A DNA stretch of 64,000 bases from a virus: the IMG/VR virus record IMGVR_UViG_3300014137_000003, one strand, 5' to 3'. Of the stretch, positions 469-60,827 are shown one piece after another. Within the stretch, counting starts at the first letter, position 1. Each line of letters starts with the position of its first letter. A model generated the notes under the pieces. The model saw nothing but the letters and a program-made list of their open reading frames with translations, was not told where the DNA came from and searched no databases. The position numbers and the translations under genes were made by a program.

Positions 469-1800
469 ATGACATTTAATCCAAAAAGTAAAATGGACCG
501 AGTCCTAATCGTGGACTTCAATCACATGGCTCACAACTTCTCCTATGGAGGGGTACGGCTAACTAAGCAGATGGCAGTAGGTAATACTATTGAAACGGTA
601 GATACAACTATTGCTAACGGTACTATCAAAAACATCTTTAACTGGTCACGTGGTGGTCAGGTTCCTACGGTAGTTTGTTTTGATAGACCTTGTCCTAGTA
701 GGAAGGCTTACTTCATGACAGAGCAGTCTGAAGGAGTCGACGGTGAGTACAAAGGAAAACGTGAGTCTATGTCTCAGAGTATGTTTTCGGGTGTTGCTTT
801 AGCTCAGGATTACCTTGAGCGAGGAGGGGTATCTTGCCTAGCCCTACATAACTGGGAGGCAGATGACCTAGTTTTCCTAGCAATCCAACAAGCTAAACGA
901 CAGTACCCTAATCATTACATTGATTTGGTAACTAATGATGCTGACATGTTACCTTTGGTAGACGAGCAGGTATCGGTCTTCTTTAGAAGTAAGAAATTTA
1001 CTTGGGCTACAGATAAGTTCTTAGAAAAGAATCGGTATATGCAGGTAACTCCAGAAAATTACCAAGAAGTTATCGAAGGTCTTTCTAGTTTTAAGAACTT
1101 ATATGTTCCTTACAATAGCTTACTCCTTTATAAGGTATTGCGTGGTGACGTTGCTGATGGTATTGTTTCTCCGTTCCCTAAGGGTACGATGACACCTAGA
1201 CGTCTAGCTAGTATTGTATGGCAGTTGGAAAATGGGGTACTCGAAGAAGGTTTCTCATTAGCTTTTAGCGTTGGTTCTAATATTCCAGTTGGTATCAAAA
1301 CTACTAAGCCAAAAGCAATTTATCTCTTCGAAGAGTCTGAATATGCCGATTTTATAGAGTCTGCGTTTAGGCATAATAGTGATGGTAGTAGGGTAACGTA
1401 TGATTTATCGAAATTATTTGTTTATACCCCTAACCAGAAGAGTTACCACTTGTTGGATGGTAGTGAGCTAAGCTTAAAAGAAGCTAAGGCTATCATGGAC
1501 GATTTTAAATCCCAAGAAGGTTGGGAGAACAAGGAACGTCCTATTGAAATCAGGTATAACGACAACCCATTGCTAGACAAAATGGTTGAGGCTTTATCTC
1601 TTGTAGGCTTAACTGAAGAAGAGTGTGCTACTTTTAGAAAGCAATATAGGGGTATGAACTTAGCACAGGCTTTCCCTAACTTACCTCAGAATATTAAAAG
1701 GCTACCGAAGAAGCTTAATAGTATCAGTGGGTATGACGGAAGGGTGCTTAACTCGGTTGTTAATGTGTTGGGAATTAACTTAAATTCCCGTTACCTTTAG
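469..1800 (+). CDS. 5'-3' exonuclease / flap endonuclease (PIN-FEN fold) with extra C-terminal region
   Basis: Motifs LIVDFNHMAH, YKGKR, WEADDLVF and LVTNDADMLPLV match the acidic-site pattern of Pol I 5'-nuclease / phage T5 D15-type FENs. The RBS-like aaagg lies upstream. Confidence 0.75.
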   Translation: MTFNPKSKMDRVLIVDFNHMAHNFSYGGVRLTKQMAVGNTIETVDTTIANGTIKNIFNWSRGGQVPTVVCFDRPCPSRKAYFMTEQSEGVDGEYKGKRESMSQSMFSGVALAQDYLERGGVSCLALHNWEADDLVFLAIQQAKRQYPNHYIDLVTNDADMLPLVDEQVSVFFRSKKFTWATDKFLEKNRYMQVTPENYQEVIEGLSSFKNLYVPYNSLLLYKVLRGDVADGIVSPFPKGTMTPRRLASIVWQLENGVLEEGFSLAFSVGSNIPVGIKTTKPKAIYLFEESEYADFIESAFRHNSDGSRVTYDLSKLFVYTPNQKSYHLLDGSELSLKEAKAIMDDFKSQEGWENKERPIEIRYNDNPLLDKMVEALSLVGLTEEECATFRKQYRGMNLAQAFPNLPQNIKRLPKKLNSISGYDGRVLNSVVNVLGINLNSRYL

Positions 1801-1809
1801 GTAAACAAT

Positions 1810-1835
1810 GAGGTCTTATGACCTCTTTTATTTTT
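1810..1835 (+). terminator. rho-independent terminator
   Basis: GAGGTC-ttat-GACCTC perfect hairpin followed by TTTTATTTTT. Confidence 0.6.
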
Positions 1836-1867
1836 GTTTTCCGAATCTATCATCTCTTCTCTTAAAT

Positions 1868-1926: not shown

Positions 1927-4900
1927 ATGAAAGAAATTAAGTTAGTTAGTAAACAAGGTTTCCGTATGTGGAAATCAGGTAAAATTTGGTTAACTTCTGG
2001 TGCCGTTGCAGGTGTGGCAGTAGTAGCCCTTGCAGGAGGTACTGTTAAAGCGGATGAAAATACTGCAGCAACAACTTCGGGTGCACCGACAACTGCCGTA
2101 ACTGCTCCAGCTCCTGCAGCAACAACTGCACCAGCAGCTCCGGTGGCAGCTACTACAACTCCAGCTCCAGCAGCAACAACTCCAGCTCCAGCAGCAACTG
2201 CTGAAACTCCTGCAGCTACAACAACTGCTCCAGCAACTTCAACTGCTCCATCTGAACCTACTGGCGTAGCCGTAACTGAGGGTTCTATTACAAATGATAC
2301 TGCCACTGGTTTGGCAGCTAATAACCTTAAGGATGCAGCAGCAGGTCGTTCTGAAGAAGGAAAACAAGCTGATTCTAACGCAGGTAAAGTTACTGGTGAA
2401 ACATCAGTATCTATCGACCACAAAGAAGTAACTGACGCAGCTAAAAAGGCTGAAGGTGTTGGTGTAAAAGTGGTTCAAGACCCTACATCTGTAGCTCCTA
2501 CAGCATCAAATGCATCACAAGCTGAAAAATCTAAAGGTTCAATCGTAGCTAAAGAGCATGCAAAAGCAGAAGAATTGAAATCAACTGCTACTGCACATTC
2601 AACTGCAGTGTCTAACTGGACAGCAGAAAAGAATTCTGTAGTTAAAGCAAATGAAGATTTGAATAATGCTCACAAATCAGCAGTCGAAGCTTACAACAAA
2701 TTTGTATCAACTTTAGATGCAGATACTGCAGCAGTAGTTGCAAAACACAAAGATGCTATCATCAAAACTACTGAAAAAGTACAAAACCTTGCTGACGGTT
2801 CTACCGTAGAGGGGTATCAAGCTTACATTAAATCACTCGCTGATCAACAAGCTTTGAACAAACAAGCTATTGCTGATTACTTGGCTAAAAAGGCAGAATT
2901 CGATGCAACTTCTGCTAAAGCTAAAGCAACTGTAGCAGAAAATGCTAGTCTTTCTGCTAGTGTAGTAGCTAAGAACAACAGCCTTTCTGCAAGTGTTGTA
3001 GCTAAAAACAACAGTCTTTCTGCAAGTGCAGTAGCAGAAACTGCTAGTCGTTCTAACTCTGCGAAAGCTGAAAACGAACGTTTGTCTCTATCAGCACAAA
3101 AAGCTACTGATGGTACTAACGCTACTGCATCAAACGCAGCTAAAAAAGTCAATGACGAAGCTAATGCCTACAACAAATCTGTTATGGAAGCAGCAGGTCT
3201 TCAATGGACTGGTGATTACGCTAAAGATAGTGCCACTGTAGAAGCTTACAACTCTAAGAAATCAAAAGAAGCTAACTCTTCTGAAGACCCAGTATTTAAC
3301 GGTGGTTACGACCGTAATCAAGCTCTTCCAGCAGCAGCTAACGGTTACACACCTAGCGGATCTTCAACTATGTTGAGCAAGGTTGAAGTTGCACCAGGTA
3401 TTGAAGCCATCGCAACTGGTGACCTTACACAACACGGTGCTAAAGTTCACTTGCGTGGTGATAATGTTAACCCAGCTAAAATCGTTACAAAAGTAAACTG
3501 GGGTAACGTCGAACTTGAAGGTGATAACAAACGTACTTTCGTACCAGGTGACAACAATGACATTTGGGGTAACACTTATGGATATGCAAGTGGTGGAGCT
3601 AATCGTTTCTACATTGTAAACCAACTTCAATGGTACAAGATTCCTAATGGTGCCACTACAATGGATGGTACAGTTCATGACCTTTGGGTAATGTTCCACA
3701 AAGATGCAACAGGTTTGCACCCAGCTTATCAAACTGGTGAAGTAGCCGTTTGGAACGCAAATGGTGCAGTTAACGCCATTGACGGTGGTACAGAACACCT
3801 TAGCGACCGCCCAGGGGATGGTATTCGTGCAGTCTACTCTCTAGACACACCTGACAACCATGACCCAGAAGTTCTTTGGATGGAATTGATTGCTGACATC
3901 GACGGTGGTCAAATGATGCAAGATATTGGGGGTATGAAGATCCTCGGTGTCGGTGGTGGTTTCGCTACTGACTCTGTAGTTACTAATAACCCTCGTGTAG
4001 ACGAACAACTTGGTTACGAGTATGGTATCGGACGTAACGATAAGTCTGCATTGAATGGTTACAATTCATCACCAGATGGTACTCTCCTTGCAATCGGTTC
4101 AGGTCTCTTCACTTATGTAGTTCGTAACACACCAGGTGGTAACAGTACAGGTGTTGCCCGTGCTGACTTCGGTGGTGATGCAACTACATCAGTAGCACTC
4201 GTTAAGAAGTTTAATCCTATCACTCTTAAACCTTTGACTTCTTACAACCCAGGTAAATCTGAGTACACTCCAGTAACTTTCAAACCTGCTGAGTTTACTC
4301 CAGAGAAGTTCACTCCAGAAAACTTCACTCCGAAAGAAGTTCCTAACGTTCCTCAAGCTCCAACATTGAGCTTGACTAAACTTACTGACCCAGCTAAACC
4401 TAAGCTTAAAGAAGTTCCTAAAGAACCTCAAGCTCCAACAGTTCACTACAATTTGACAGCTTTGAATGTTAACACACCTGTTGACAAGTCTGTTGAAAAT
4501 GAAGATGGCGTTGACATCAATGGTCAGTCTGTTGCTAAAGGTTCTGTAAACGTATTTAAACTTTCTCCAAAAGCTCTTTCAGCTGGTCGTCCTGTTACGG
4601 AATCTATCGTAAACAGCGACTACATCGACAATGGTTTGGAAACTCTTGTTGATAAAGTCAAAGAAGACAACAGCAAGGCTTATGATGTAACTTATGATGC
4701 AACAACTCGTTTGTTGACATTCAAAGCTAACGCATCTGAAATTGCTCGTGCGAATGCTGATCGCTCTAAAGAGTACACACCAACTCCAATCAAAGTTACT
4801 TACAAAGTGCTTAACGATGCAGCAATGTATGAAAATACATTCAAGATGGATGTGAACGGTGGTGCTACTACTGGTAAGGGGTATACATCATATTCTAACA

Positions 4901-6291
4901 AAGTTCGTATTTACACACCAGGTAAACCAAACAATCCTAACGACCCACAAAACCCAAATGGTGGGGGTAACCATAAGATTCAACCAGTTAAGAACAATAC
5001 CAACAAAGAAGGTAAAAATATTAACGGTAAGACTCTCCTCCAAAACGACGTAAACTACTACGTTGCAGAGTGGGATATGGACCAATACATCAATGATAAA
5101 TCTTCTAAATCAGCTATTGCTGAAGGTTTCGGTTATCTTGATAACCCACAAGACGATGCTTTAGAGGGTATCGAAAAAGACTTTAAAGCAGTTGATGCTA
5201 AAGGTAATGATGTTACTAAAGAGTTGAACTTCTACAAAGCTGACTCAGCTAAGTTGTCTGAATTGCCAGAAGAAGCTCAAAAACTAATTAAGAAGAGCGG
5301 TATTGATGTATCTAACTTCGGTACATTCTACGTTTGGACAGCTAAAGATAACCAAGCATTCTACGACAAGTATGTGAAGACTGGTACTGATATCTTCTTC
5401 AACTTACCAATGTCTATTAAAAAAGGCTTTACTGGTGACTACACTAACCAAACATGGCAAATTGACTTCGGTAACGGATACACTGGTAACATTGTTAAAA
5501 ACGACGTACCAGGTTTGACTCCTAAGAAAGATGTCATCGTAGATGGTAAATCTTCTGACGGAGCAACAGTTGCTTACGGTCAAGAGTTCCAATACTTGCT
5601 TAACGGTGCTATCATCCCAGGAAACCGTGGGGAAGCTCTTTGGGAATACAAATACCTCGATGATTACGATCAAACAGGTGACAAATTCCTTGGAACATAC
5701 ACTGTGAAAGCTACTACAGATGTTACTGTAGCACACAAAGTTACTCTTACAGAGGATACAACTTACAAAGAAGATGTTACTCTTGAAGACGGAACTGTTG
5801 TAAAAGCAGGTCAAACTGTTCGTAAGGGTTCTGTAGTGAAAGTGAAAGAAGTACTTGCTAAGGGTACTGACTTGACTAAGTACACTACTATGGAACACAA
5901 TGCTACAGATGGTATCGTAACTATCGCATTCAAGGAAGACTTCCTTGCATCTATCGTAGATGACAGCAAGTTCGGTGCTGATGCAGCTCTTGACTTCAAA
6001 CGTATTGCTTACGGTACTTTTGAAAACACTTACATCAACCGTGTAAACGGGGTAGACTACATCTCTAACACTGTTAAGACAACTACTCCTAAACCAGAAA
6101 CACCAAAACCTAACACACCAACTCCTAACACACCAACTCCTAGCACTCCAACTCCAGCTCCAGCGCCAGAGAAGAAAGTGTTGCCTCATACTGGTGAAGA
6201 AAAATCAGCTATGGGTATTGTAGGTGGATTGATGGCTCTCATGTCTCTTGTTGGTATTGGTATGGGTACTAAACGTACTAAAGAAGACTAA
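1927..6291 (+). CDS. antigen I/II (SpaP/SspB/PAc)-family LPxTG cell-wall-anchored adhesin
   Basis: KxYKxGKxW-type signal peptide (FRMWKSGKIW). Ala/Thr/Pro-rich N-terminus, Ala-rich coiled-coil A-region, globular V-like region, Pro-rich P-region (FTPEKFTPENFTPKEVP...PKEPQAPTVHYN), C-terminal domains and a TP-rich wall spacer. Ends with LPHTGE + TM + KRTKED. Confidence 0.85.
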   Translation: MKEIKLVSKQGFRMWKSGKIWLTSGAVAGVAVVALAGGTVKADENTAATTSGAPTTAVTAPAPAATTAPAAPVAATTTPAPAATTPAPAATAETPAATTTAPATSTAPSEPTGVAVTEGSITNDTATGLAANNLKDAAAGRSEEGKQADSNAGKVTGETSVSIDHKEVTDAAKKAEGVGVKVVQDPTSVAPTASNASQAEKSKGSIVAKEHAKAEELKSTATAHSTAVSNWTAEKNSVVKANEDLNNAHKSAVEAYNKFVSTLDADTAAVVAKHKDAIIKTTEKVQNLADGSTVEGYQAYIKSLADQQALNKQAIADYLAKKAEFDATSAKAKATVAENASLSASVVAKNNSLSASVVAKNNSLSASAVAETASRSNSAKAENERLSLSAQKATDGTNATASNAAKKVNDEANAYNKSVMEAAGLQWTGDYAKDSATVEAYNSKKSKEANSSEDPVFNGGYDRNQALPAAANGYTPSGSSTMLSKVEVAPGIEAIATGDLTQHGAKVHLRGDNVNPAKIVTKVNWGNVELEGDNKRTFVPGDNNDIWGNTYGYASGGANRFYIVNQLQWYKIPNGATTMDGTVHDLWVMFHKDATGLHPAYQTGEVAVWNANGAVNAIDGGTEHLSDRPGDGIRAVYSLDTPDNHDPEVLWMELIADIDGGQMMQDIGGMKILGVGGGFATDSVVTNNPRVDEQLGYEYGIGRNDKSALNGYNSSPDGTLLAIGSGLFTYVVRNTPGGNSTGVARADFGGDATTSVALVKKFNPITLKPLTSYNPGKSEYTPVTFKPAEFTPEKFTPENFTPKEVPNVPQAPTLSLTKLTDPAKPKLKEVPKEPQAPTVHYNLTALNVNTPVDKSVENEDGVDINGQSVAKGSVNVFKLSPKALSAGRPVTESIVNSDYIDNGLETLVDKVKEDNSKAYDVTYDATTRLLTFKANASEIARANADRSKEYTPTPIKVTYKVLNDAAMYENTFKMDVNGGATTGKGYTSYSNKVRIYTPGKPNNPNDPQNPNGGGNHKIQPVKNNTNKEGKNINGKTLLQNDVNYYVAEWDMDQYINDKSSKSAIAEGFGYLDNPQDDALEGIEKDFKAVDAKGNDVTKELNFYKADSAKLSELPEEAQKLIKKSGIDVSNFGTFYVWTAKDNQAFYDKYVKTGTDIFFNLPMSIKKGFTGDYTNQTWQIDFGNGYTGNIVKNDVPGLTPKKDVIVDGKSSDGATVAYGQEFQYLLNGAIIPGNRGEALWEYKYLDDYDQTGDKFLGTYTVKATTDVTVAHKVTLTEDTTYKEDVTLEDGTVVKAGQTVRKGSVVKVKEVLAKGTDLTKYTTMEHNATDGIVTIAFKEDFLASIVDDSKFGADAALDFKRIAYGTFENTYINRVNGVDYISNTVKTTTPKPETPKPNTPTPNTPTPSTPTPAPAPEKKVLPHTGEEKSAMGIVGGLMALMSLVGIGMGTKRTKED
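2941..3039 (+). repeat. 3 x 33-nt in-frame tandem repeat (11-aa units ..SLSASVVAKNN..) inside the adhesin A-region
   Basis: Units at 2941-2973, 2974-3006 and 3007-3039, read directly (NASLSASVVAK / NNSLSASVVAK / NNSLSASAVAE). Confidence 0.8.
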
Positions 6292-6661: not shown

Positions 6662-9600
6662 ATGTTTAAAGACAAAGTTCAAGGGCATGGCTCTATTAAG
6701 AAATTGCGTACTGGTGCAGTTGTGTCAGTACTAACACTATCAGTACTAGGTGGGGTATCTGTTGTAAACGCAGACGAAACAACCTTAACTGAAGCTACTG
6801 CAAATAATGTAGAAGTAGTTGCGAAAGATACTACAGCTGAGGCTACTACCGGTAATGTAGCAGTAGCTTCAACAGAAGCAAAATCTGAAACAACTCCAGT
6901 AGCACAGCCTACTGGAGTCAAAGCTGAAACGGTAGCAGAAACACCTGTTGCCCCAACAGTAACCGCAGATCAAGTTGCTAACGCTAAAGTCGTAGCAAAC
7001 CAAGCTAATCAAGCATTGAACGCTCAAGAGGGTGTTGTTGCTAGTGCTGAAACAGCAGTAACTGAAAACAACAACACTGTTACTGATTTGGGTAATCAAA
7101 TCACGGAAGTTGAAAAGATTACACCTGAGGTAGTTGCCGAAGCTAAATCAGATCAAGCGAAAGCTAAAGAAACACTAGACCAAGCTACAGCAGCTACAAC
7201 AAGTGTTGAGGGTAGCCTTACTGATGCTACAAATAAAGAAGCAACTCAAAAAGGTGTAGTTGCCAAAGCTGAGTCAACTGTTGAAAAGACTGCAAGTGCA
7301 GTTGCTGATGCTGAGAAGAAAGTAGAAGCTCTTTCAGCTACAACAGATACTGCTAAATTGGATCAAGACGTTAAGGACTTGACTACAAAAGTAGCTGAAG
7401 ACACTACTAATGTAAAATCTGCTAAGGACTCTCTTGAGGCAGCTAAGTTGTCTGTAAGTAACAAAGACCAAGCAATCAAGGATCAAAAATCTGTTGTAAC
7501 TACTGCTGAGGGTACTGTTGAAAGCTCTTCTAAAGCGTATGATACTGCTAAAGGCAACCAAGAAGGTACTCAAACAGCTGAAAATTCAACTAAATCTGCT
7601 CTTGACGAAGCTAAGAAAGGTAAAGTTGTAACAGAAACTGTTAAAGCAGGTGAAGTTACAACTGTAACAGCCGATGGGGTATATTTGAACAAAGGTGTTG
7701 CTTATTCAAACTTTACAGAAACTAATGGTATAGTTACAAGCCAAGCTTATTTGGATGCAATCAAAGCCCTTGCTAAAGGTACAGGGTCTGTCCAAGCCGT
7801 TAAGGATGCAATCAAGAAGGGTGACGAAAATGGTAACAACCTAGCTATCGTGTCAGCTCCTACTTCATCTGCATATAATTCATGGGTTAAAAACATGGAT
7901 TTCAACTTTGCTAACACAGATTCAGCAACTAAGTTGGATGTTAACAATTTGTCTGACAGCCAGTTGACTGACTTGGCATTGTTCTACACTGCTTTGCTTA
8001 ACGACCTTCGTTTCAAAGTGGGTACTAACTTGGTAACTGTAACCGATCAAAGTGTCGCTGAAGCTAAGAAGACAGTAACATCTATCTTTGACAAGTTGTT
8101 CCCAGCTTACAAAGGCATGGATGGAGCTCAACTTGAAGCTAATGGTTTTTGGAACTCTATGTCAGATCCTAAGAACCCTTTGAAATACACAGGTACTAGC
8201 TTGCAAGATACTGTTAAGGGTATTGACTCTGAAGATATAACTGTTATCGGGCAAAAACCCGCAAACAACGTAAGCTATGAAAACAATGACGGACGTAAAC
8301 AGACTATGTTCGACTTGAAAGCTAAAATCTTTGCTAACTTGGGTAACCAACTCTATGGTACTTCAGGTATGGGGTATCTTGGTGAAGCTTACGGTGGTGT
8401 TGATGGCAAACGCTCTGACAACTTTGATCTAGCTTTGGAAGTTCTTGGTCTTAAGGGTACTTCTACAACAGCAGGTATTGATTTTGGATTCACAAACACT
8501 TACAATGGTATGATTGACCGTGCACCAAGCACTTACACTGTACTAGGTAATTCTTATGGTAAAGCTATCAACAATCCTTACCAAACACTTGAAAACCCTA
8601 AAGAAACTGTAACTCCAGTCTATAAAGACGTAGAACGTACTATTGTAGATGATGCAGCAGTTGCTAAGGCTCAAACAAACTATAATGCAGCAGTAAAAGC
8701 TAACCAAGACGCTAAATCTAAGGTAGCTACTGCAGAGACTGCCTATAACACTGCAAAAGAAGCTCTTGCAAACGCTCAGAAACGTTTGGCTGACTTGGTA
8801 GGGGGTACTGTAGATATTCCAGCTCTTGAGAAAGCGTTGGCTGAGGCTCAAACTCAACTTGAATCTGATCAGGCTTCTCTTCAAACTGCAAAAGAAACTC
8901 TTGCTTTGGCTAAGGCTAGTGCAACCGACAAGGCTAAGGCTTTGGAAGTAGCTAAGACTGAACTTGCTGAAGCTACAAAATCTAGCGAAACAGCCAAAGG
9001 GGTACTCGCTAAAGAAAAAGAAACTCTTGAAATTCTTGCTAAAGCCGTAGCAGTTGCTCAAACAGCTCTTACAGACGCTCGTACTAAACAAGACGTTGCT
9101 AAAACAAAATTCATTACTGCTAGTGTTAAAGCTGAAGACCTTGCCACTAAATTGGCTAATAAGGCAACAGTATTGGCTGACTTGAATTCTAAGCTTGCTG
9201 ACGCTAAAGCTAAGTCTAGCAAACTCGCTGATGAACTTAAGACTGCTAAAGAGCGTTACGAAACTCTTAAGAAAGACTCAAACGCTAAGAACGTAGAATA
9301 CCTCCGTTTGGCAACTGTAAAAGCTGAACAAGATAAGGCTGAGGCTGAAGTTGCGCGTTTGCAGGCTCTTAAAGATAAGGCTGATGCAATCGTTGCACAA
9401 GGTGGTGTTGTAGTACAGGTAGTTGACGCTGATGGTAATGTTGTTGACGTAGTGGATGGTACTAAAGCAACTAAGAACGCTGACGGCTCTATCGCTATCG
9501 AAGGTAAACAGTATGCTCTTAACAATGATGGTACTGTATCTAGGGTAGTTGTTCCAACAGCTGACACTGGGGTATCTTCTGCTAACGCTAACGGCACAGG

Positions 9601-10399: not shown

Positions 10400-10509
10400 T
10401 GAATTAGGTCTTGTTACTTAATTAATTTTAAATTTATAGGCATTGTAGAAGTACAAATTTAGAAGATTAAGGGTCTAGGTATAAGGCTCTTTCTTTATTT
10501 GTTGTTTTG

Positions 10510-10518
10510 TGGTATAAT
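10510..10518 (+). promoter_or_regulatory. extended -10 promoter element (TGgTATAAT)
   Basis: Read directly; about 45 nt upstream of the small ORF at 10562. Confidence 0.4.
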
Positions 10519-10561
10519 ATAGTTTAAGATTATGGTAGTTATTATTTGAAAGGTTAAGATT

Positions 10562-10720: not shown

Positions 10721-10751
10721 TGGTAGGGCTGATATACTAGGTATCGTTTTA

Positions 10752-10789
10752 GGGGCTTTATAGGGGCTATATGGGGCTTGTGTGGGGTG
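10752..10789 (+). repeat. four helically phased G-tract repeats (GGGGCT x3, GGGGTG x1)
   Basis: GGGGCT at 10752, 10763 and 10773; GGGGTG at 10784. Spacings are 11, 10 and 11 nt. Confidence 0.6.
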
Positions 10790-50475: not shown

Positions 50476-50775
50476 ATGGAAGTTACAAAAATAAAATATT
50501 TTCCTATTGAGAGGACGTCTGAGACTCATCCTCTAGTTGCTTGTTCAATTACTTTTGACGATGTATTCATGATACATGATGTCAAGGTGTTCTCTGGGGG
50601 TATTGTTGTAATGCCACAGAGGGGTAGGGATAAGTCATCTAGTAACAGTAGGTCTAGCAGGGACTTGTGTCACCCCATTGATAGGGATTTCTTCTTCAAG
50701 TTGAAGGGTATCGTTATTGAGGGGTATAATTCTTATTTGGAGACAGGGGAAGCATGTTTCTTCCCTAGTAAGTGA
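50476..50775 (+). CDS. spoVG: SpoVG-family protein
   Basis: MEVTKIKYFPIERTSETHPLVACSITFDDVFMIHDVKVFSGGIVVMPQRG...DLCHPIDRDF matches the SpoVG pattern (..A.ASITFDD.FV.HD.KV..G..v.MPsR....fRDi.HPi). Confidence 0.8.
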   Translation: MEVTKIKYFPIERTSETHPLVACSITFDDVFMIHDVKVFSGGIVVMPQRGRDKSSSNSRSSRDLCHPIDRDFFFKLKGIVIEGYNSYLETGEACFFPSK

Positions 50776-50934: not shown

Positions 50935-52518
50935 TTGGGTAGAAGAAAAGAAGTAAAATATTATGGAAACCATTTGATTGGTGATTATCTCACCGAGCGT
51001 CAGGCTCAGATGTTGTTAAAACTGCAACAAGTGTCTGAGGGGCAAGGGGGTATCGAAGAACTTAGGCACATGGCTGATGAGCTAACAGATGAACAAGTCG
51101 ATGAAATCATCGAAGCTAGGGATTCTGATGTTGTTGCTCCAGAGGATAGAAAGCAAGGAACTCTGACAGACCTTCAAACGGTGGGGGTATCTTTTATGTA
51201 CGTTTCTAAGCGTATGATTTTAGGGGATTCAGTTGGTATGGGTAAGACGGTACAAGTTTCTAGTCTTATTAAGTACCTTACTATGAAGGCTGAGGAAAAA
51301 GGTTTTTCTTTTAATGTATTGTATCTGACAGAAAAGAACCTTACTAGGCAATCTACTAGGGAGTTAATTAAGTTTAGTGGTCTTTACTTTGAGGAGCTTG
51401 GTGGGGAGAAGGATAAAATTCTTAAATTTAGCCAACGTAATGAGCTTATGTCTGTAAATGTCTGTGGAAATCACTCACTAATGAGTCACCCTCTATTCCA
51501 TGCTTGGTGTGACCAGTACGAAGATTACTATGGGTATTTCCCATTTGATATGATTGTTGTAGATGAGTCAGGTTCTGTTCTAACTAATGATAAAACTACA
51601 AAGTTCAAGTCGGGTAGGCTTTTGGCTGATAAGGCTGATTATGTTATTTTAATGAATGCAGGGTCTTTCGAGAATGCTTTAGATAAGTTTAGAGCTCAAT
51701 TAGACTTTGTAGATCCTACTTTCTTATTTACTAAGACGGAGTTTCAGAGAAGGTACCAGGAGTTAGATTGGTCGTTTGGTCGCCCTCAGTTTAGGGGTAA
51801 GTACAAAAATGCCGAAGATTTTCGTGAAAAGATAGCTTTAAGGTATTTAAAACGTACTCGTGAGGGTCAAGGAGCTCAGATGATTGGTTGTACTGCAGAA
51901 TTAATAGAGGTGGGTACTTCTAAAATTCAGAAGCAAATACTTCGTAAATCATCTATGCCTCATATGGCATTGGATTGTCCTTCTTATTGGGATGATCATA
52001 TTGAGTACAATGCTGAAAATGTTCCAAAAGCAGGAGCATTACTAGACTTGTTGAACGGAAAGCTCAAAGGGGTAGAACAAGTTCTTATTTACACCACCTT
52101 GAAAGAACCTCATAAGCATCTAAAACGTTTCCTAGAAGCTAACGGATTTAAGTCTGAGATTATGAATGGTAGTACACCTATTAATGTTAGAAATGAAATT
52201 ATCGATGCCTTTAAACGTAAGGATATTCGTATCTTGATTACTAATGTTCAGCGTGGATTGAACTTTGGGGCTTGTAACCATTGTATCTTCTACAACTATG
52301 ATGGCAACCCTAATAATATGGTTCAGTTCGAAGGTCGTATTACACGGGACTTTAATATTGTAGATAAGCACGTTTATATGATTGTAACTAGGGGTGATGA
52401 GAAGCGTAAGCTATTATCTGAAATCTCTAGACGTGCTGAGGCAAGTAGTGAGTTTGCAGGTAGGGACTTCTCCATGGTATTGGATTTGCTTAAAGAACAT
52501 GCAAATAAGAAGAAATAG
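50935..52518 (+). CDS. SNF2/RAD54-family helicase-like ATPase
   Basis: LTDLQTVGVSFM (Q-like), ILGDSVGMGKTVQ (motif I), MIVVDESGS (motif II), and a helicase-C region ..ILITNVQRGLNFGACNHCIFYNYDGNPNNMVQFEGRITR. TTG start with a TAGGAG RBS. Confidence 0.8.
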   Translation: MGRRKEVKYYGNHLIGDYLTERQAQMLLKLQQVSEGQGGIEELRHMADELTDEQVDEIIEARDSDVVAPEDRKQGTLTDLQTVGVSFMYVSKRMILGDSVGMGKTVQVSSLIKYLTMKAEEKGFSFNVLYLTEKNLTRQSTRELIKFSGLYFEELGGEKDKILKFSQRNELMSVNVCGNHSLMSHPLFHAWCDQYEDYYGYFPFDMIVVDESGSVLTNDKTTKFKSGRLLADKADYVILMNAGSFENALDKFRAQLDFVDPTFLFTKTEFQRRYQELDWSFGRPQFRGKYKNAEDFREKIALRYLKRTREGQGAQMIGCTAELIEVGTSKIQKQILRKSSMPHMALDCPSYWDDHIEYNAENVPKAGALLDLLNGKLKGVEQVLIYTTLKEPHKHLKRFLEANGFKSEIMNGSTPINVRNEIIDAFKRKDIRILITNVQRGLNFGACNHCIFYNYDGNPNNMVQFEGRITRDFNIVDKHVYMIVTRGDEKRKLLSEISRRAEASSEFAGRDFSMVLDLLKEHANKKK

Positions 52519-53844: not shown

Positions 53845-53929
53845 CTATTACCAGATACTTGTTTTATTCCTCGATATTTTATATACTATTTATAGGTCTT
53901 TTATATTTTATATTTTGAAAGGAGTTTTT

Positions 53930-55969
53930 ATGTCCAATAAAAACTTAGATAGCTATGGTATTGATAGCTTGAAGAAGCTGAAGGGTGCAGAACCTATTCG
54001 TAAACGTCCAGCCTCTATGTTAGGTAGTGAAGGTCTTGATGGTGCGAAACACACCTTTTGGGAAATTGTAGGTAATGCTTTCGATGAAGTTTCATCGGGG
54101 TATGGTGACCGAATTGAAATTAGGTTTTACCCAGAAGATGGCTCGATTTCTGTACGAGATTTCGGTCGTGGTGTTCCTCTTACTTGGTCTGAGAAGGAAC
54201 AGGACTGGGGTTGGTCTATCGTTTATAACACTCTCTATGCAGGGGGTAAAATGGATGACCCTAAAACAGTGCTTATCGGTTTCGATGACTGGGACAACTT
54301 TAAATTCTCTAACTATTCTTATCTAGCATCTATTGGATTGAATGGGGTAGGGGCAGCTTGTTCTCAGTTTACTTCAGAATACTTTGATGTAGTTTCTTAC
54401 CGTGATGGGAAAGAGTACTCTATGCACTTTGAGAAAGGTTATCCAGCTTGGGAAGAGTTGCATGTTGCTGAACAAACCCAACCAAATGGTACATTTGTAA
54501 AATGGAAACCTGATGCAGAGGTATTTACGGATGTAAACATTACTTTTGCTTGGCTTAAGTCTGTATGTGAGGATATGTCTTATGTGTCAGGGGTAGATGT
54601 AATTCTGTCTGACGGCAAGAAAGAAATCACTTATTCTGCATCAAACATTAAGGAACATTTAGCAAGTCGTGTTGGTTCTTTTGTTGCTGAGTCTTCTTAT
54701 CTACACCATGAAGACCTTGAAGATAAGGAAGGGAATGTAGTAGGTGTCCTTGTCTGTGAGGCTAATGTAGTAATGTCAGGAAAAGGTGCAGGAGTTCGTT
54801 ACTTCAACAACCAGGTTAAGGTTGTAGGAGGGGTACACGAGGATTATTCTCGTTCTGCTATCGTGAATTTCTATAAAGCTAAAGGTAAAGAACAAGGAAT
54901 CAAATTGCTTGATGGGGATATTCTAGGGCAGTACTCTATGATTATCACAACTTTGGCTAATGAAAAATCTTATCGTGGTCAAACTAAGGACTCTATTGAT
55001 AACCCTTATATTGGTGATGCAATTTACTATGCAATTAACAAATTGCTTAGTAATTCTTGGTTAAAAGAAGAAGACTGGTGTAAGAAAATCCTTGAACGTG
55101 CTATCACTTCTGCTACAATTAGGGAAGCAGCTAAGGCAGCTGAAGCTCAAATCAAGGAAGCAAACAAAAAGATTAACAAACCTACTATGCCAGACAAGTT
55201 CGTATCTTGTGAGGCATCACTTAAAGGTAATTATAAAGAAGTTGAACTTTACATTGTAGAGGGGGACTCAGCTAAAGGTTCAACAGTAGCAGCCAGGGAC
55301 TCTAGATTTCAGGCAGTTCTTCCAGTTAGGGGTAAAACTCTGAATACAGCTAAGGCTACAGTTGAAAAGGTGCTTAACAACAAAGAAGCAGTTGAAATTA
55401 TGAATGTTGTTGGGGCTGGTATGACTGTAGAGGAAGAAGGGTACAGTCTCTTCAATTTAGATAATTTAAAAGTTGGTAAGGTTATCCTCATGACCGATGC
55501 CGATGAAGATGGTAAGCACATTAAGGCTTTGCTAGTTACTTTTATTTACAAGTATATGCGTCCTCTCTTGGAAGAAGGTTTAGTTTATCTTGCTAACCCT
55601 CCGAAATACCATGCGAACGGGGTATATTACTATACTGAGGAAGAATTCCAAAAAGCCCGAGAAGAAGGTAAGGTAGGTAAGAAATATGACCGTTATAAAG
55701 GGTTAGGGCAGATGGACCCTCAACCTCTTTGGGATACTACTATGAATCCTGAGACTCGTATCTTAACTCAAGTTAAAATTGATAAGGATGATTTTGAGGC
55801 TGAAAGAGCTATTGAAATCATGTCAGGTTCTGATGCATCCATCCGTAAACAATTTGTACTGGAAGCATTAATGGACGGGGATTACGAGGATTCTTTAGAG
55901 GCGTTAAACGAAGTACTAAAGGAAATGGAGTTCGAGGATGAACTTGAAATCGAAGAAATCTACTACTAG
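53930..55969 (+). CDS. type IIA DNA topoisomerase, ATPase/Toprim subunit (GyrB/ParE-like)
   Basis: GHKL motifs WEIVGNAFDE, VRDFGRGVP and GLNGVGAA. Toprim motifs ELYIVEGDSAKGS, QAVLPVRGKTLN and ILMTDADEDGKHI. Tail YKGLGQMDPQPLWDTTMNPETR. The ATG at 53930 has an AAAGGAG RBS. Confidence 0.85.
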   Translation: MSNKNLDSYGIDSLKKLKGAEPIRKRPASMLGSEGLDGAKHTFWEIVGNAFDEVSSGYGDRIEIRFYPEDGSISVRDFGRGVPLTWSEKEQDWGWSIVYNTLYAGGKMDDPKTVLIGFDDWDNFKFSNYSYLASIGLNGVGAACSQFTSEYFDVVSYRDGKEYSMHFEKGYPAWEELHVAEQTQPNGTFVKWKPDAEVFTDVNITFAWLKSVCEDMSYVSGVDVILSDGKKEITYSASNIKEHLASRVGSFVAESSYLHHEDLEDKEGNVVGVLVCEANVVMSGKGAGVRYFNNQVKVVGGVHEDYSRSAIVNFYKAKGKEQGIKLLDGDILGQYSMIITTLANEKSYRGQTKDSIDNPYIGDAIYYAINKLLSNSWLKEEDWCKKILERAITSATIREAAKAAEAQIKEANKKINKPTMPDKFVSCEASLKGNYKEVELYIVEGDSAKGSTVAARDSRFQAVLPVRGKTLNTAKATVEKVLNNKEAVEIMNVVGAGMTVEEEGYSLFNLDNLKVGKVILMTDADEDGKHIKALLVTFIYKYMRPLLEEGLVYLANPPKYHANGVYYYTEEEFQKAREEGKVGKKYDRYKGLGQMDPQPLWDTTMNPETRILTQVKIDKDDFEAERAIEIMSGSDASIRKQFVLEALMDGDYEDSLEALNEVLKEMEFEDELEIEEIYY

Positions 55970-56626: not shown

Positions 56627-56654
56627 GTAGTATAGAATATTTTTGGAGGTCGTT

Positions 56655-58865
56655 TTGGCTAATTTATATAATGGTAGTTCAGAAGGATTAAAACAAGTAA
56701 TAGAAGGTTTTCGTGACTACTCTATCGAGGTAGCTATTAACCGTTCTTTTCCTAGTATCGTCGATGGTCTTAAGACTTCTCAGAGACGTATTCCTTATGT
56801 ATTATACAAAGAAAAGGTATTTTCTCTAACTAAGTCTAATAAAGTAGTTGGGTATATCATGGCTTATCACCCCCATGGGGATGGTGCAATTTATGATACA
56901 GCAGTCCGTATGGTTGACTCCAACGGCTCTATTACTCCCCCTATGCTTAAAGGGGAGGGAAATCTAGGACTATCTTATTCTGATGCAAGTGCAGCTCATC
57001 AACGTTACACTAGTATGTGTCTTTTGGATTCTGCTAAAGACTTGTTCTTAAGAGATTTGGACGGTGTTCCTTGGAAGCCTACTGAGACTGATGAAGGTCT
57101 TGAACCAGTTTATCTTCCAGCTCGATTCCCTATGGCTCTTACAGCCTCTGTACAGGGTTTGGGAGTGGGTATCGCTAATAAGATTCCATCTTTTAACTTT
57201 GGGGATGTAGTGAAGCTCACTAAAGAGTACATTGCTGACGGTTGTCAATTCAATAATCAAATTATTTACCCAGACCTTCCAAATGGGGGTGTCGTGGTAG
57301 CTAATAATAGCGAGATGGCTAAGGTTATGGCAACTGGTCGTGGTAAGATTAAATCTAAGTCACGTATTTCGGTGAATAAGCGTGATGTTCTTATTGAAGA
57401 GTTACCTTACATTATGACTGACGGCAAGGTAATAGATAAGATTAAATCTCTTATTCGCTCAAGTAAAACTAAGAAACTTAATAATGGGGAACTAAATCCT
57501 TATTATGGAAAGTTTCCTTATGTAACTTCGGAGAACCAGGTTATTCTTACTTCTGACCTAAAAGGTTTCGGTATTAAAATTACTTGTCGTAAGGCAGCAG
57601 ACGTAGAACCTATGTTGTTAGAGTTGGCACGTAGGAATATCACTCAAAATAATTACACTTCTAACATGATTTTCACAAATGGTGATAGACTTGTGATGAC
57701 TGGTGTCTATGGGGTAATCAGGGAGTGGTTTGCCAAACGCAAGGAGATTTTGACTCGTAAGTTTAACAAACAGATTGATGCCCTCTCAAAAGAGTTGCCT
57801 ATCTTAGATTACTTTATCCGTCTAATTTCAAATGATGAGCATAAAAACAAGTATTTGGATATTATCGCCAACGAAGGGGTATATGCAGCTAACGAGTACT
57901 TAGAAGAAATCTTTGAAGGTATTTCGAGTGAAGCTTGTGATTGGATTTCTAAGCGACGTGCTAATGCATTCCTTAATGGTGGTAAATATGCCAAACGTTT
58001 TGAGGATATCACAAATACAATTGAGCTTTACAAAGGTTACTTGGCTGACCTTAATACTTATATTTACGACGACTTAACAGAAATCGAAAATAAGTATGCT
58101 CATCTTTACCCTCGTAAGACTGAGATTACGTTTAAAGACTATAAGTTTGTTAAACGTGAAGAAGTTGTAGAAGTAGACGATTCTTACTGTGGTTATGTCT
58201 TGTATAAGGACGGAACTATTCAAAAAGCCTCATCAGTTGAAGGCTTTAAGGACATGGAAAGCGTAGCTCAGATTATTGAAGGTCGTGCTAATAGCTTGTT
58301 GGTAGGTTTCGATTATGTGGGTAATCTTCTCCGTATTTATGGTGATGAGTTGCCTTATGGTAAGACTAACTTACAAACTTATCTAGGGGTAGCAGGGCTT
58401 GTAGAAGACTACAAAGTCATGTACTTAACTGTAGCTGATGGTAGCGTTAAGCGTTTGTTGTACCGTGATGGTAAGATGTCTGTACTAGACACTAACGAGT
58501 TTCTTCGTAAAAAACAACGTAAACGTTTCGTTCGAAATGGGGTACCAGAGGATGTTAATACTAACTTGGTAGAAGTCTTCAATGAAGAAGATTTGGACGA
58601 GTATTTGTATGTTGCTGATGAGACGAAAGACCTCAAACTAGGGGTAGTAGCTTGGAAGAACTTACCAGTGAAATCTCGTCTAGGTAAGACACGTGCCTTT
58701 AGTGGTAGCAAGGATATGAATATCACTCAATATGGTACTTGTGACTTAGAAGCTTGCCACTCTTACTTTACAAATATGGAAAGTTTTGAAGGTAAGTTGC
58801 GTAAGGTGAAAGAAGGAGACGTTTCCTTTGATGGAACTGAGTTTGAGAAAGGTAGGTTCGTATAA
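56655..58865 (+). CDS. type IIA DNA topoisomerase, DNA breakage-reunion subunit (GyrA/ParC-like)
   Basis: NRSFPSIVDGLKTSQRRIPYVL, YHPHGDGAIYDTAVRMV and the catalytic-Tyr context AAHQRYTSMCL. The TTG at 56655 (GGAGG 5 nt upstream) is preferred over the TTG at 56643. No ATG is available. Confidence 0.85.
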   Translation: MANLYNGSSEGLKQVIEGFRDYSIEVAINRSFPSIVDGLKTSQRRIPYVLYKEKVFSLTKSNKVVGYIMAYHPHGDGAIYDTAVRMVDSNGSITPPMLKGEGNLGLSYSDASAAHQRYTSMCLLDSAKDLFLRDLDGVPWKPTETDEGLEPVYLPARFPMALTASVQGLGVGIANKIPSFNFGDVVKLTKEYIADGCQFNNQIIYPDLPNGGVVVANNSEMAKVMATGRGKIKSKSRISVNKRDVLIEELPYIMTDGKVIDKIKSLIRSSKTKKLNNGELNPYYGKFPYVTSENQVILTSDLKGFGIKITCRKAADVEPMLLELARRNITQNNYTSNMIFTNGDRLVMTGVYGVIREWFAKRKEILTRKFNKQIDALSKELPILDYFIRLISNDEHKNKYLDIIANEGVYAANEYLEEIFEGISSEACDWISKRRANAFLNGGKYAKRFEDITNTIELYKGYLADLNTYIYDDLTEIENKYAHLYPRKTEITFKDYKFVKREEVVEVDDSYCGYVLYKDGTIQKASSVEGFKDMESVAQIIEGRANSLLVGFDYVGNLLRIYGDELPYGKTNLQTYLGVAGLVEDYKVMYLTVADGSVKRLLYRDGKMSVLDTNEFLRKKQRKRFVRNGVPEDVNTNLVEVFNEEDLDEYLYVADETKDLKLGVVAWKNLPVKSRLGKTRAFSGSKDMNITQYGTCDLEACHSYFTNMESFEGKLRKVKEGDVSFDGTEFEKGRFV

Positions 58866-59323
58866 TGTCAGAACTTTTAATTGAAGGTAGCTCAGAAGTA
58901 AGACTCGTGGAAGGGGAGATTTCGAGTGTTAGCAAAAATGATTTGAAGTTTCTCTTCGAGGTAGCAGAACTTAAACAGGATTTTACGATTTATTGTAGGG
59001 GTATTGAATTCTATCTTCAAAGGAAGGACTCTAATTTGTATGATAGTCCAGGTTCGATAGTTTTTACCACTATCCACGAAGATGCGTCTTTGTCTCTTAA
59101 CTACATTGGGCAAGAAGAAGTAAGTATGGAGAATATCTCTGATAAGTCCATCAAAGATGTATACGAATTACTTACTACGGTTAATGATGCTCTTAAGGTA
59201 GATGAGGATTGTATTAGGGTTTTCGTCATTCATAACTTTAAAGAATTATTTAAGGATGCGGATTTGTTATCTAAGTTTATGGATTATGTTAATCAAAACA
59301 ACATTTATGTAGCAGTAGATTAG
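58865..59323 (+). CDS. acidic hypothetical protein (152 aa)
   Basis: Start overlaps the previous stop (TAATG). Confidence 0.55.
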   Translation: MSELLIEGSSEVRLVEGEISSVSKNDLKFLFEVAELKQDFTIYCRGIEFYLQRKDSNLYDSPGSIVFTTIHEDASLSLNYIGQEEVSMENISDKSIKDVYELLTTVNDALKVDEDCIRVFVIHNFKELFKDADLLSKFMDYVNQNNIYVAVD

Positions 59324-59333
59324 GGGGTATATC

Positions 59334-60827
59334 TTGCCAGAGGATTATGTAGTTCTTTCTCCCGAGCAAAGGCTGAAGAGTTTTGGGGATATTCTTCTTG
59401 CGAGTGCTTTAGGAAAAAGTGAAACAGCAATAAAAAATAGGCAATTTCTTTTCGGTAATGCTAGAACTGAGTTATTTAGGGACGAGTGTTTCATTATTTA
59501 CTCTCTTCTATATAAGTTCAAGGATAGGAATATTTCTATCGACGAAGAGTTTGTTAAACTTTCTCTTATGCACCAGCAGGATATTATTGAGACTGCCTCT
59601 AACATAAGGAAGATTGACATTAACTCCTACGGTGATATAGATGACTCACCTGCATTGGGGTATATTGGTGGGGTAATGAAGTACTTCGCTAATCTATCGA
59701 AGATGGACAAGGTACTCCCAGATGAATTTCAACTTGTATTTGAGAAATATCTCATTGAATACAAGGCGATTGAAACTTCACAGGTTTACGCTGATAGTCT
59801 TCAGATTATTGGTGATGGTCTAAAAGTAGGTCGTAAGACCTTACAAGGTTTTGAAGCAAGTCGTGACTACGTTAAGAATAACTTAGCTAGAATTGAGGGA
59901 GTCGTAGACCAAAACAAGGGTGTAGGGTTTGTAAATATGTCCGAGGTCATCCTAAATCCTAAACAAGAAAGTCAGTCTGTTAAAATCTCCGACTTTGGTG
60001 CTATTGAAGAGCTTAACAACCACTATGGGGGTATCTATACGGGTAACCTTTACACTGTAATGGCTCCATCTAAGTCAGGTAAGTCTAAGTTTTGTGCTAG
60101 ACTTTCCCACACTGCAATGGTTAACTACGGTGTAAACGTATCTGTTTGGGCTTTCGAGGGTGGTTTCGAGGCATGGACAGCTCAGATGAGGGCTATCCAC
60201 TTCGACTACACTTATAATACAGGGGCGTCTGCAACTGAGGTTAAGGTTGGGGTAACTCAGGGGGCTATCTTACACGACAAGTTTCCAGAGGGTAGCCCAT
60301 ATCGTGAGTTGGAAGCTACTTCTAAGCTAGACTTAGCTAGTAATTCGGCTTATGGTAGTATGCACTTTATCGATAGACCTTTTAAGGTTGAGACTTTCCT
60401 AGATGAGATTGACGCATCTATTAAAGCTAACAATTCTCAAATGCTTGTAATTGACTATCTTCAACTTATTGACTCTGAGAAGTCTATGAGTGAACGTGAG
60501 CGTATTGCTACGGCATACCCCCGTTTGTTGGAGTATTGTAAGAAAAACAATATTGCAGTAGTTTCTCCAGCCCAGTACAAACAGGATGTTGTTGATGAGT
60601 TGCAACGCAAAAAAGAGGGTGAGTCTCGTGATATGCGTACAGCAGGTGGTGGTTCTTATGAGATTATTAAGACTTCCGATGTTATCTTTGCTCTTTGGGC
60701 AAGCACGGAGGACCTTACTAATAACAAGATGACCATTATGCCTATGCCAACTCGTTTTTACGATGCAATTCCAGAGTTTGACATTTATGTAGACTTGGGG
60801 TATTGCCAGTTTAGGTCGCTTAATTAA
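59334..60827 (+). CDS. DnaB-like replicative helicase (RecA-fold hexameric helicase family)
   Basis: Walker A VMAPSKSGKSKF, Walker B/DnaB signature MLVIDYLQLI, and ..AVVSPAQYKQ.. TTG start preceded by GGGGG. Confidence 0.8.
   Translation: MPEDYVVLSPEQRLKSFGDILLASALGKSETAIKNRQFLFGNARTELFRDECFIIYSLLYKFKDRNISIDEEFVKLSLMHQQDIIETASNIRKIDINSYGDIDDSPALGYIGGVMKYFANLSKMDKVLPDEFQLVFEKYLIEYKAIETSQVYADSLQIIGDGLKVGRKTLQGFEASRDYVKNNLARIEGVVDQNKGVGFVNMSEVILNPKQESQSVKISDFGAIEELNNHYGGIYTGNLYTVMAPSKSGKSKFCARLSHTAMVNYGVNVSVWAFEGGFEAWTAQMRAIHFDYTYNTGASATEVKVGVTQGAILHDKFPEGSPYRELEATSKLDLASNSAYGSMHFIDRPFKVETFLDEIDASIKANNSQMLVIDYLQLIDSEKSMSERERIATAYPRLLEYCKKNNIAVVSPAQYKQDVVDELQRKKEGESRDMRTAGGGSYEIIKTSDVIFALWASTEDLTNNKMTIMPMPTRFYDAIPEFDIYVDLGYCQFRSLN

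Follow-up and report, generated by a model that had tools for sequence, protein, structure and literature searches.

Among described mobile elements, the closest counterpart of the DNA considered here is pXO16, an aggregation-mediated plasmid of Bacillus thuringiensis sv. israelensis that conjugates very efficiently; its tip locus spans 25 kb and holds 16 genes, among them those for two ATPases and the hydrolase TipB (PMC9673590, PMC6199540). Neither a relaxase nor an oriT has been found on pXO16, which mobilises plasmids devoid of mob and oriT as well as chromosome segments of up to 791 kb (PMC9673590, PMC6199540). The DNA that pXO16 transfers is said to be single-stranded, and the mechanism to be a distant relative of type IV secretion systems (T4SS), like that of pCW3 (PMC9673590, PMC6199540). 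The plasmid has been thought nearly confined to serovar israelensis and its conjugation system has been called "rather unique" (PMC9673590, PMC6199540). The common orientation of its genes, together with its paralogues, had suggested a "phage-like nature", but no plaques were obtained (PMC6199540). Here we analyse a stretch of 64,000 nucleotides filed in IMG/VR as virus record IMGVR_UViG_3300014137_000003 (hereafter the window). In our reading, which we consider probable, the window covers roughly a third of a giant plasmid from human saliva, a conjugative, extrachromosomal circle of ~181 kb whose most likely carrier is an oral Streptococcus and which belongs to the pXO16 lineage at about half the size of pXO16 itself.

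Large plasmid-like elements have been described in the mouth before. The Inocles (Kiguchi et al. 2025) are giant circular plasmid-like elements of oral Streptococcus salivarius, 245-395 kb in size with a GC content of 32% or 24%, and are absent from isolate genomes (PMC12340149). Their genes include those for VirB4, VirD4, an exonuclease, a "gyrase", a RecD-like helicase, NrdH, a sigma factor, an S26 signal peptidase and LPXTG proteins, along with insertion sequence (IS) elements; their polymerase is Pol III alpha, their two replichores meet at a switch in the orientation of the open reading frames (ORFs) at the origin/terminus, and their marker InoC is a single-copy protein of ~454 residues with an N-terminal PF13814 replication-relaxation domain (PMC12340149). 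The Inocle paper mentions neither pXO16 nor Bacillus (PMC12340149). In addition, Yahara et al. 2021 found in their saliva sample 2 a high-coverage "plasmid-like element" of 223,995 bp, assigned to Streptococcus, which VirSorter classed as a phage yet which had zero hallmark genes and carried T4SS homologues (PMC7782811).

The window matches contig k119_53718 (152,811 bp) of ENA assembly ERZ27314187 at 100% over the 11.8 kb compared, and shows 97% nucleotide identity to IMG/VR contig 3300008274_000007 (180,840 bp). In the latter the terminal 79 bases are identical to the initial 79, and the window's own contig, k119_53718, runs continuously over the junction of these two ends. Because of this overlap and of the contig bridging it, we take the element to be a circle of ~180.8 kb, of which the window makes up about one third; the element fills the entire window and extends beyond it on both sides, as the initial annotation, which had suspected something much larger than 64 kb, anticipated. 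A 232-kb relative is circularly permuted likewise. The saliva contig BNJU01004314.1 (186,893 bp) holds a stretch 95-98% identical to the element, and its accession range is that of saliva sample 3 of Yahara et al. 2021 (a long-read assembly). On 3300008274_000007 we covered positions 1-110,586 and 169,932-180,840, to which the equivalent of ~160-170 kb was added from a related contig, so that negative results for the whole element refer to ~131 of its 181 kb (72%); PHROGs was run on ten window ORFs.

The link to pXO16 comes first of all from the VirB4-like ATPase of the window. In a translated search of PLSDB its sole matches were Bacillus plasmids, the ten best being copies of the 350-kb pXO16 (pBTHD789-1 and equivalents), which align with 99% of the query at 37.6% identity (E 3e-128). 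When 123 proteins of the window and of the adjoining DNA were compared with the reference pBTHD789-1 (NC_018516.1) at E < 1e-4, pXO16 homologues were found for 35 of the 123, in nearly the same order: their positions on pXO16 rise monotonically, with three exceptions, from 53 kb, where the FEN nuclease lies, to 304 kb, the place of a toprim protein. The shared order runs from FEN through the surface proteins, the DnaX-like protein, YdjM, the giant protein, the VirB4-like and FtsK-like ATPases, SpoVG and SNF2, and continues with topoisomerase B, topoisomerase A, DnaB, DnaG, the ligase, ParB/HNH, PolA, an HD protein and the toprim protein. The annotated tip neighbourhood of pXO16 is itself ordered as the window is, with an AAA ATPase, a metal-dependent hydrolase, the giant protein, the VirB4-like protein, FtsK/SpoIIIE, SpoVG and a DEAD/SNF2 helicase. 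Since the 35 homologues are nearly collinear, the element in the window amounts to a condensed pXO16 backbone.

The two replicons also agree in strand and composition. All 50 window ORFs taken as genes lie on the plus strand, at a coding density of 94%. Of the 32 windows of 2 kb, 30 have a positive GC skew, which is ~+0.2 nearly throughout and near zero only at 2-6 kb, the region of the adhesin gene. Over the ~131 kb covered, not one minus-strand ORF was accepted as a gene, and the skew stays positive nearly everywhere, the contig junction included. Likewise, all 454 annotated coding sequences of pBTHD789-1 are on one strand, and its GC skew is +0.16 to +0.24 around the whole circle. Over the portion covered, element and pXO16 have in common one coding strand, a near-uniform positive skew, many paralogue families and no recognisable relaxase; the giant membrane protein, the VirB4-like ATPase and, by position and domain content, the FtsK-like ATPase of tip-type transfer genes; the SpoVG-SNF2 pair, a DnaX-like protein, a two-subunit topoisomerase II, a DnaB-like helicase, DnaG parts, an NAD ligase, ParB/HNH, PolA and FEN, with surface-protein genes just after FEN; and Ser/Thr kinase and PP2C genes, besides which pXO16 has an FHA protein. 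They differ in size (181 kb vs 350 kb), in GC content (about 38%, or 0.37-0.39 across the element regions measured, vs 33%) and in the adhesion module, which is streptococcal in the element (antigen I/II and PrgA/Sec10) and made of isopeptide, VaFE and S-layer-linked proteins in pXO16. The element's wall hydrolase has CHAP and SGNH domains, unlike that of pXO16, and the hosts would be an oral coccus on the one hand and a soil spore-former on the other, with conjugation of the element predicted from its genes.

The transfer and surface genes of the window are the following.

1927-6291, plus strand: antigen I/II-family (SspB-like) LPXTG adhesin (AgI_II_C2, 107 bits; Antigen_C, 88 bits; LPHTG at residue 1419)
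6662-9805, plus strand: PrgA/Sec10-type surface-exclusion protein, an LPXTG-anchored coiled coil (TIGR04320, 108.5 bits, against a curated cut-off of 70 bits for this SEC10/PrgA model; LPNTG at residue 1014)
27233-32782, plus strand: block of four paralogous membrane proteins with three transmembrane segments, a YdjM-type hydrolase and two small ORFs
27233-28078, 29589-30443, 30516-31955 and 31958-32782, plus strand: the four paralogues of this block, recognised by their hydrophobic segments
28857-29564, plus strand: YdjM-type membrane hydrolase (PF04307, 49 bits)
32800-37671, plus strand: giant polytopic membrane protein of 1623 residues (~7 hydrophobic segments)
37746-39602, plus strand: membrane-anchored SGNH/GDSL and CHAP cell-wall hydrolase (PF05257, PF13472)
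39608-44212, plus strand: four ORFs, three of them conserved (365, 509 and 413 residues), with pXO16 homologues in the same order
44215-46296, plus strand: VirB4-class transfer ATPase (pXO16 homology, profile and fold; Walker A AETGHGKS)
46307-47254, plus strand: conserved bitopic membrane protein between the two ATPases (one N-terminal transmembrane segment)
47402-49597, plus strand: membrane-anchored FtsK/SpoIIIE-type coupling ATPase, TcpA-like (FtsK_SpoIIIE PF01580, 58.8 bits; Walker A GMKGTGKS)

Standard models recognise the VirB4-like protein weakly, DUF87 matching at E 0.004 and a VirB4 model at 24.6 bits, and searches of PDB and PHROGs with the single sequence returned nothing. A profile built from 28 family members, on the other hand, found the VirB4 structure 4ag5 as its best PDB match (E 1.4e-4), and the ten best Foldseek matches of an AlphaFold2 model (pLDDT 67.5) were all VirB4/TrwK, with 4ag5 at E 1.6e-10 and a TM score of 0.69. 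Membership in the VirB4 class is therefore supported by profile and by predicted fold, and the T4SS-like assignments on which the initial annotation depended hold. The FtsK-like protein has an N-terminal membrane segment and matches FtsK in PDB at E 4e-8; it is syntenic with the FtsK/SpoIIIE protein of pXO16, and the direct similarity between the two is weak (E 0.002, N-terminal region only). Similarly, the wall hydrolase occupies the position of TipB with a weak match restricted to the N-terminal membrane region (E 0.007). The bitopic protein between the ATPases is 37.5% identical to its pXO16 homologue (E 5e-61) and has no PDB match, and the three conserved ORFs upstream of the VirB4-like gene match pXO16 at E 1.7e-48, 4.5e-5 and 3.4e-12; no ORF of that group matched Pfam or PDB, and family profiles of the conserved 413- and 315-residue proteins gave only noise against PDB.

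The giant protein is 35.7% identical over 1027 residues to a pXO16 protein of 1834 residues (E 1.6e-172) and is kept in metagenomic relatives; it is a candidate VirB6/TcpH-like channel scaffold. Just upstream of it, the four paralogues have one architecture, a signal/transmembrane segment followed by two C-terminal transmembrane segments, and two of them match the same pXO16 gene. The pXO16 homologues of this block lie at 121-125 kb (E 1e-17 to 6e-43), and its proteins are candidate channel or pilin-like parts. The antigen I/II protein, a candidate mating-aggregation adhesin, sits just after FEN, where pXO16 has its surface-protein (agr) region. Its nearest named homologues are Streptococcus anginosus SspB-related adhesins (~42%), and since these are streptococcal, a streptococcal host is likely; an oral Streptococcus appears the most likely one.

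Compared with the Tcp system of pCW3 and the Prg/Pcf system of pCF10, the element likewise combines a VirB4-class ATPase, an FtsK/TcpA-like coupling ATPase, a wall hydrolase and a large polytopic protein, with a PrgA-type exclusion protein and an adhesin upstream of the channel genes. All three members of the trio typical of Gram-positive plasmids and integrative conjugative elements (ICEs), the VirB4 ATPase, the coupling ATPase and the peptidoglycan hydrolase, are present, whereas no MOB relaxase family, the other canonical trait, was found in either the window or the further 67 kb covered. Unlike pCW3 and pCF10, the element has a VirB4-like protein too divergent for standard models and carries a full replication set, absent from those plasmids:

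469-1800, plus strand: FEN / 5'-3' exonuclease (PF02739, 56.5 bits; 30.7% identical to its pXO16 homologue, E 2.6e-55, in collinear position)
25918-27228, plus strand: DnaX-like AAA+ clamp-loader-type ATPase (DNA_pol3_delta2 PF13177, 90 bits, and lid domain; 36.7% identical to pXO16, E 7e-88)
50476-50775, plus strand: SpoVG-family nucleic-acid-binding protein (PF04026, 46 bits)
50935-52518, plus strand: SNF2-family helicase (PF00176 (SNF2), PF00271 (Helicase_C); 39.5% identical to its pXO16 homologue, E 5e-113)
53915-55969, plus strand: ATPase/Toprim (B) subunit of a type IIA topoisomerase (Pfam GyrB, Toprim and GyrB_C; 34.8% identical to the pXO16 protein, E 9e-128)
56643-58865, plus strand: cleavage (A) subunit of a type IIA topoisomerase (DNA_topoisoIV PF00521, 215 bits; active-site RY motif at residues 121-122; 29.6% identical to the pXO16 protein, E 1e-86)
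59334-60827, plus strand: DnaB-like replicative helicase (DnaB_C PF03796, 36.8 bits; 36.9% identical to pXO16 over its full length, E 3e-99)
outside the window: DnaG zinc ribbon and a separate Toprim protein
outside the window: family-A polymerase of 1220 residues with 3'-5' exonuclease
outside the window: NAD-dependent ligase
outside the window: RNase HII/HIII
outside the window: ParB/HNH protein

The DnaX-like gene lies directly upstream of the transfer genes both in the window and in pXO16, and SpoVG keeps its position in pXO16 and in relatives that are ~50% identical in the VirB4-like protein. In topoisomerase A no GyrA C-terminal repeat and no further Pfam family was detected. Its best match among 589 hits in GTDB, with one genome for each of 185,579 species, is 31% identical, which is the level of ordinary gyrA/parC, and the topoisomerase is therefore not a housekeeping gene of the host. 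This result bears on the view that the window is part of a bacterial chromosome, either as an integrated conjugative element or as a region with the housekeeping gyrase, dnaB and dnaX genes. A GC content of 38% is near that of oral streptococci, and both the adhesin and the signal peptidase resemble chromosomal streptococcal genes; the circle is nonetheless closed, with its 79-bp overlap bridged by an independent contig, and no integrase, tRNA gene or chromosomal flank was found in the window, while relatives are on contigs of up to about 170-270 kb. A chromosomal origin is barely credible, and both its housekeeping and its ICE version were rejected on the topoisomerase match and the closed circle. 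Nearly all assignments behind the co-oriented transfer module and phage-like replisome/topology set that had been noticed initially were confirmed by profiles.

The same annotation had set the element apart from ordinary ICEs and plasmids as well as from phages, and had recognised no relaxase, integrase, Rep, capsid or terminase gene. Searched with Pfam at E <= 0.01, no window ORF indeed matched a relaxase, integrase, Rep, capsid, terminase or portal family, and the other 67 kb covered outside the window yielded no virion gene, relaxase or PF13814 domain. A jumbo phage or phage-plasmid, whose viral character the single gene orientation and the paralogue families would reflect and in which VirB4/FtsK-type ATPases would serve virion or DNA-delivery functions, could be argued from the replication genes, which are phage-like (PolA, DnaB, primase, ligase, FEN and topoisomerase II), from the presence of a Phage_lysozyme2 domain, from the "phage-like nature" once raised for pXO16 (PMC6199540) and from the filing of seven contigs of the element's family in IMG/VR as viral genomes; the coverage of ~131 of 181 kb also leaves 50 kb to such genes. 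Across those ~131 kb, however, Pfam detected no capsid (major capsid included), portal, terminase (large terminase included), tail or baseplate family, and ten window ORFs without a firm Pfam family had no meaningful match in PHROGs. The VirB4-like protein matched no record among 50,697 phages, and megablast of 22 kb (40,000-62,000) against PLSDB plasmids and GenBank phages found nothing. In addition, the surface-exclusion protein, the LPXTG adhesin and ArdC are hallmarks of conjugation, pXO16 conjugates and never gave plaques (PMC6199540), and the 224-kb salivary "plasmid-like element", likened to ours by description only, has zero phage hallmark genes (PMC7782811). We therefore regard a phage as very improbable. 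Together with the 31% topoisomerase match in GTDB, the lack of phage structural genes in 131 kb bears out that separation from ordinary ICEs and plasmids and from phages.

Membership in the Inocle family is another reading, and one that we judge unlikely. Habitat and probable host genus are held in common, and the published gene list (PMC12340149) overlaps strikingly with that of the element: compared by published description only, both are circular, oral and absent from isolate genomes, with VirB4 and VirD4-type genes, their own replication genes, an exonuclease, gyrase-like genes, a RecD-like helicase, NrdH, a sigma factor, a signal peptidase, LPXTG proteins and IS elements. A relative with a topoisomerase A 37% identical and a GC content of 32% also keeps the gene order. 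Yet the element is smaller (~180.8 kb vs 245-395 kb) and richer in GC (0.37-0.39 vs 32% or 24%), its polymerase is of family A and not Pol III alpha, and no orientation switch like that of the two-replichore Inocles was seen in the 131 kb covered, the contig junction included. No ORF of the 131 of 181 kb scanned matched PF13814, the InoC domain, and the authors' own InoC screen of circular saliva contigs gave no taxon of 38% GC (PMC12340149). The Inocle marker domain is likewise absent from the 25 strongest families listed for 32 mid-sized or larger pXO16 proteins, 29 of them hypothetical. The relative just cited, IMG/VR 3300045988_187936, retains topoisomerase B, topoisomerase A, DnaB, DnaG and ParB/HNH in this order, and its GC content matches the figure reported for Inocle alpha, beta and gamma. 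As for the 223,995-bp element, likened here by description only, its size fits a clade with topoisomerase A ~58% identical to that of the window and contigs of 210-255 kb, so that it would be a different, larger member of that clade if related at all.

For a plasmid of the pXO16 type, the following course can be proposed. For its maintenance the plasmid would supply most of its own replication fork, namely the family-A polymerase with 3'-5' exonuclease, the DnaB-like helicase, the split DnaG-type primase, the DnaX-like AAA+ ATPase, FEN, RNase HII/HIII and the NAD-dependent ligase, while relaxing and decatenating so large a circle is probably the task of the type IIA topoisomerase, in which no GyrA C-terminal domain is recognisable. 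One coding strand and a skew that never clearly reverses suggest replication in a single direction, co-oriented with transcription, and own-fork replication of this kind would explain both features in the element and in pXO16. In transfer, the antigen I/II LPXTG adhesin may bring donor and recipient together and hold the mating cells, with the PrgA/Sec10-type protein limiting mating between donors. The SGNH/CHAP hydrolase would open the cell wall for a channel presumably built from the giant polytopic protein, the four paralogous proteins with three transmembrane segments and conserved proteins of unknown family; the VirB4-class ATPase would power this channel and the membrane-anchored FtsK-type coupling ATPase would feed it with DNA, which the ArdC-like anti-restriction protein may protect on arrival in the recipient.

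Several points weigh against the giant plasmid reading. Protein identity to pXO16 is low, at 23-39%, and for 88 of the 123 proteins no pXO16 match was detected. The FtsK-like protein and the hydrolase are equated only weakly with their pXO16 counterparts, mainly by domain content and position. The role of the DnaX-like protein is uncertain, since no sliding-clamp gene was seen in the portion of the element covered. The remaining ~50 kb (roughly 110.6-160 kb of the IMG/VR contig) could hold a relaxase, Rep, a strand switch or phage genes, and there is also the viral filing of the family in IMG/VR. Finally, the mechanism draws on homology and on the pXO16 experiments, and both transfer and the host are predicted from sequence.

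Our bioinformatics analyses place the element in a wider group. Topoisomerase A has hundreds of close relatives, all from metagenome assemblies: its 99% cluster includes contigs of up to about 180-190 kb, and the contigs of relatives in general reach about 170-270 kb, not megabases. A deposited assembly also has the core, at ~50% identity and in the order giant protein, VirB4-like, FtsK-like, SpoVG and SNF2, on contigs of 174 kb and 209 kb, and one homologue is deposited under Clostridium baratii. Among 1.84 billion representative sequences the VirB4-like family is small and well apart from ordinary VirB4, since 238 sequences pass E <= 0.001 and 92 of them pass E <= 1e-30. Bacillus subtilis, B. 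velezensis and B. amyloliquefaciens have plasmids of 143-216 kb whose DUF87 proteins are 24-27% identical to the VirB4-like ATPase, and these plasmids may be further members of the lineage. One may go further and suppose that pXO16, the 181-kb element, the metagenomic relatives and possibly the Inocles form one old Bacillota lineage of single-strand-coded giant replicons with their own forks and a relaxase-independent start of transfer, which would be made by conserved unknown core genes near those for VirB4-like, FtsK-like, SpoVG and SNF2; we offer this as a tentative proposal that is rather more open to doubt than the plasmid reading itself.

The remaining recognisable genes fall outside these two modules, and more than half of the window ORFs are without a Pfam family.

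10860-12212, plus strand: TnpB-related insertion-sequence gene (NF040570, E 3.4e-9; TIGR01766)
13182-13973, plus strand: DNA/RNA non-specific endonuclease (PF13930, 72 bits)
14025-14720, plus strand: small regulator with sigma-70 region 4 and an alpha-CTD-like domain (weak Pfam/NCBIfam matches, E 1e-4 to 1e-6)
15519-16001, plus strand: type I signal peptidase, S26 (PF10502, 123.6 bits)
16459-25820, plus strand: nine ORFs without known families (no Pfam or PHROGs match)
61880-63124, plus strand: membrane-bound lysozyme-like hydrolase (PF18013, 87 bits; four hydrophobic segments)
outside the window: NrdH-like glutaredoxin
outside the window: GtfA-type glycosyltransferases
outside the window: Ser/Thr kinase with PP2C phosphatase
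outside the window: ArdC-like anti-restriction protein

The TnpB-related gene lies in an AT-rich insert of ~2.3 kb (window 10400-12660; GC 0.33) flanked by long intergenic gaps, and because FEN and the topoisomerase lie closer together by the same 2.3 kb in the 97% relative, the insert is probably an IS of recent arrival. No dispersed repeats were found, the commonest 16- to 24-mers being present just 2-3 times. The endonuclease has a pXO16 homologue (34% identity, E 5e-23) in a position that is not collinear, and within the group of nine ORFs that at 18898-20151 has a collinear one (E 2e-12). The 231-residue regulator at 14025-14720 may correspond to the "RpoS" annotation of the Inocle paper. 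Two acidic proteins, at 21810-23237 (29% D+E) and 49606-50457 (23% D+E), have the motif [FL]DxYGVxLE in common, with two copies in the former and one in the latter; the former also carries repeated "EENDPDNPD" units. Outside the window, the ArdC-like gene (ArdcN and zincin domains) is intact in the saliva long-read contig, at 340 residues, whereas the IMG/VR contig has it in two ORFs, owing to either a frameshift or a misassembly. Upstream of it, by sequence judgement, are genes for a PP2C-like phosphatase, a Ser/Thr kinase-like protein of 655 residues and a secreted surface protein of 809 residues with a C-terminal membrane segment. Elsewhere on the element, a GtfA-type glycosyltransferase (GtfA extended beta-sheet domain) is followed by an ORF of 420 residues, a pair like the GtfA/GtfB that glycosylate serine-rich-repeat adhesins of oral streptococci. 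Outside the window, upstream of it and at a second place, there are tandem paralogues sharing the conserved N-terminus "WDEVNWQW" as well as series of small "LNLK..GF" proteins, which recall the many paralogue families of pXO16. The "WDEVNWQW" region is strain-variable, since the 97% relative is without the two intact paralogues; a 331-residue protein encoded upstream of the window is also absent from this relative, which proved to be strain variation in the paralogue region because the next gene down sits at the contig end.

Taken as a whole, the transfer module and private replisome on one strand that the initial annotation had described are in effect a description of the pXO16 plasmid type. 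The unusual class of giant plasmid-like replicons that it had proposed is real but not without precedent, since pXO16 is a prototype with the same genes, order and strand and giant oral streptococcal elements had already been reported (PMC7782811; PMC12340149). The link between pXO16 and an oral streptococcal element, on the other hand, appears to be new to the literature, where our search found pXO16 alongside metagenomes and Streptococcus only in two general reviews. It also draws attention to systematic misfiling, IMG/VR listing such elements as viruses and the MOB-typing of PLSDB labelling pXO16 plasmids "non-mobilizable". The main value of the finding lies in the link itself, which gives pXO16, so far treated as a curiosity of one B. 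thuringiensis lineage, a compact comparative partner that is streptococcal and human-associated. With the shared backbone cut to about 35 genes, there are fewer places to look for the functions still missing, those of transfer initiation and of the replication origin, and the oral giant elements that cannot be cultivated gain in pXO16 an experimentally tractable model. From an evolutionary point of view, a collinear relative of half the size in human saliva shows that the pXO16 type is widespread and old.

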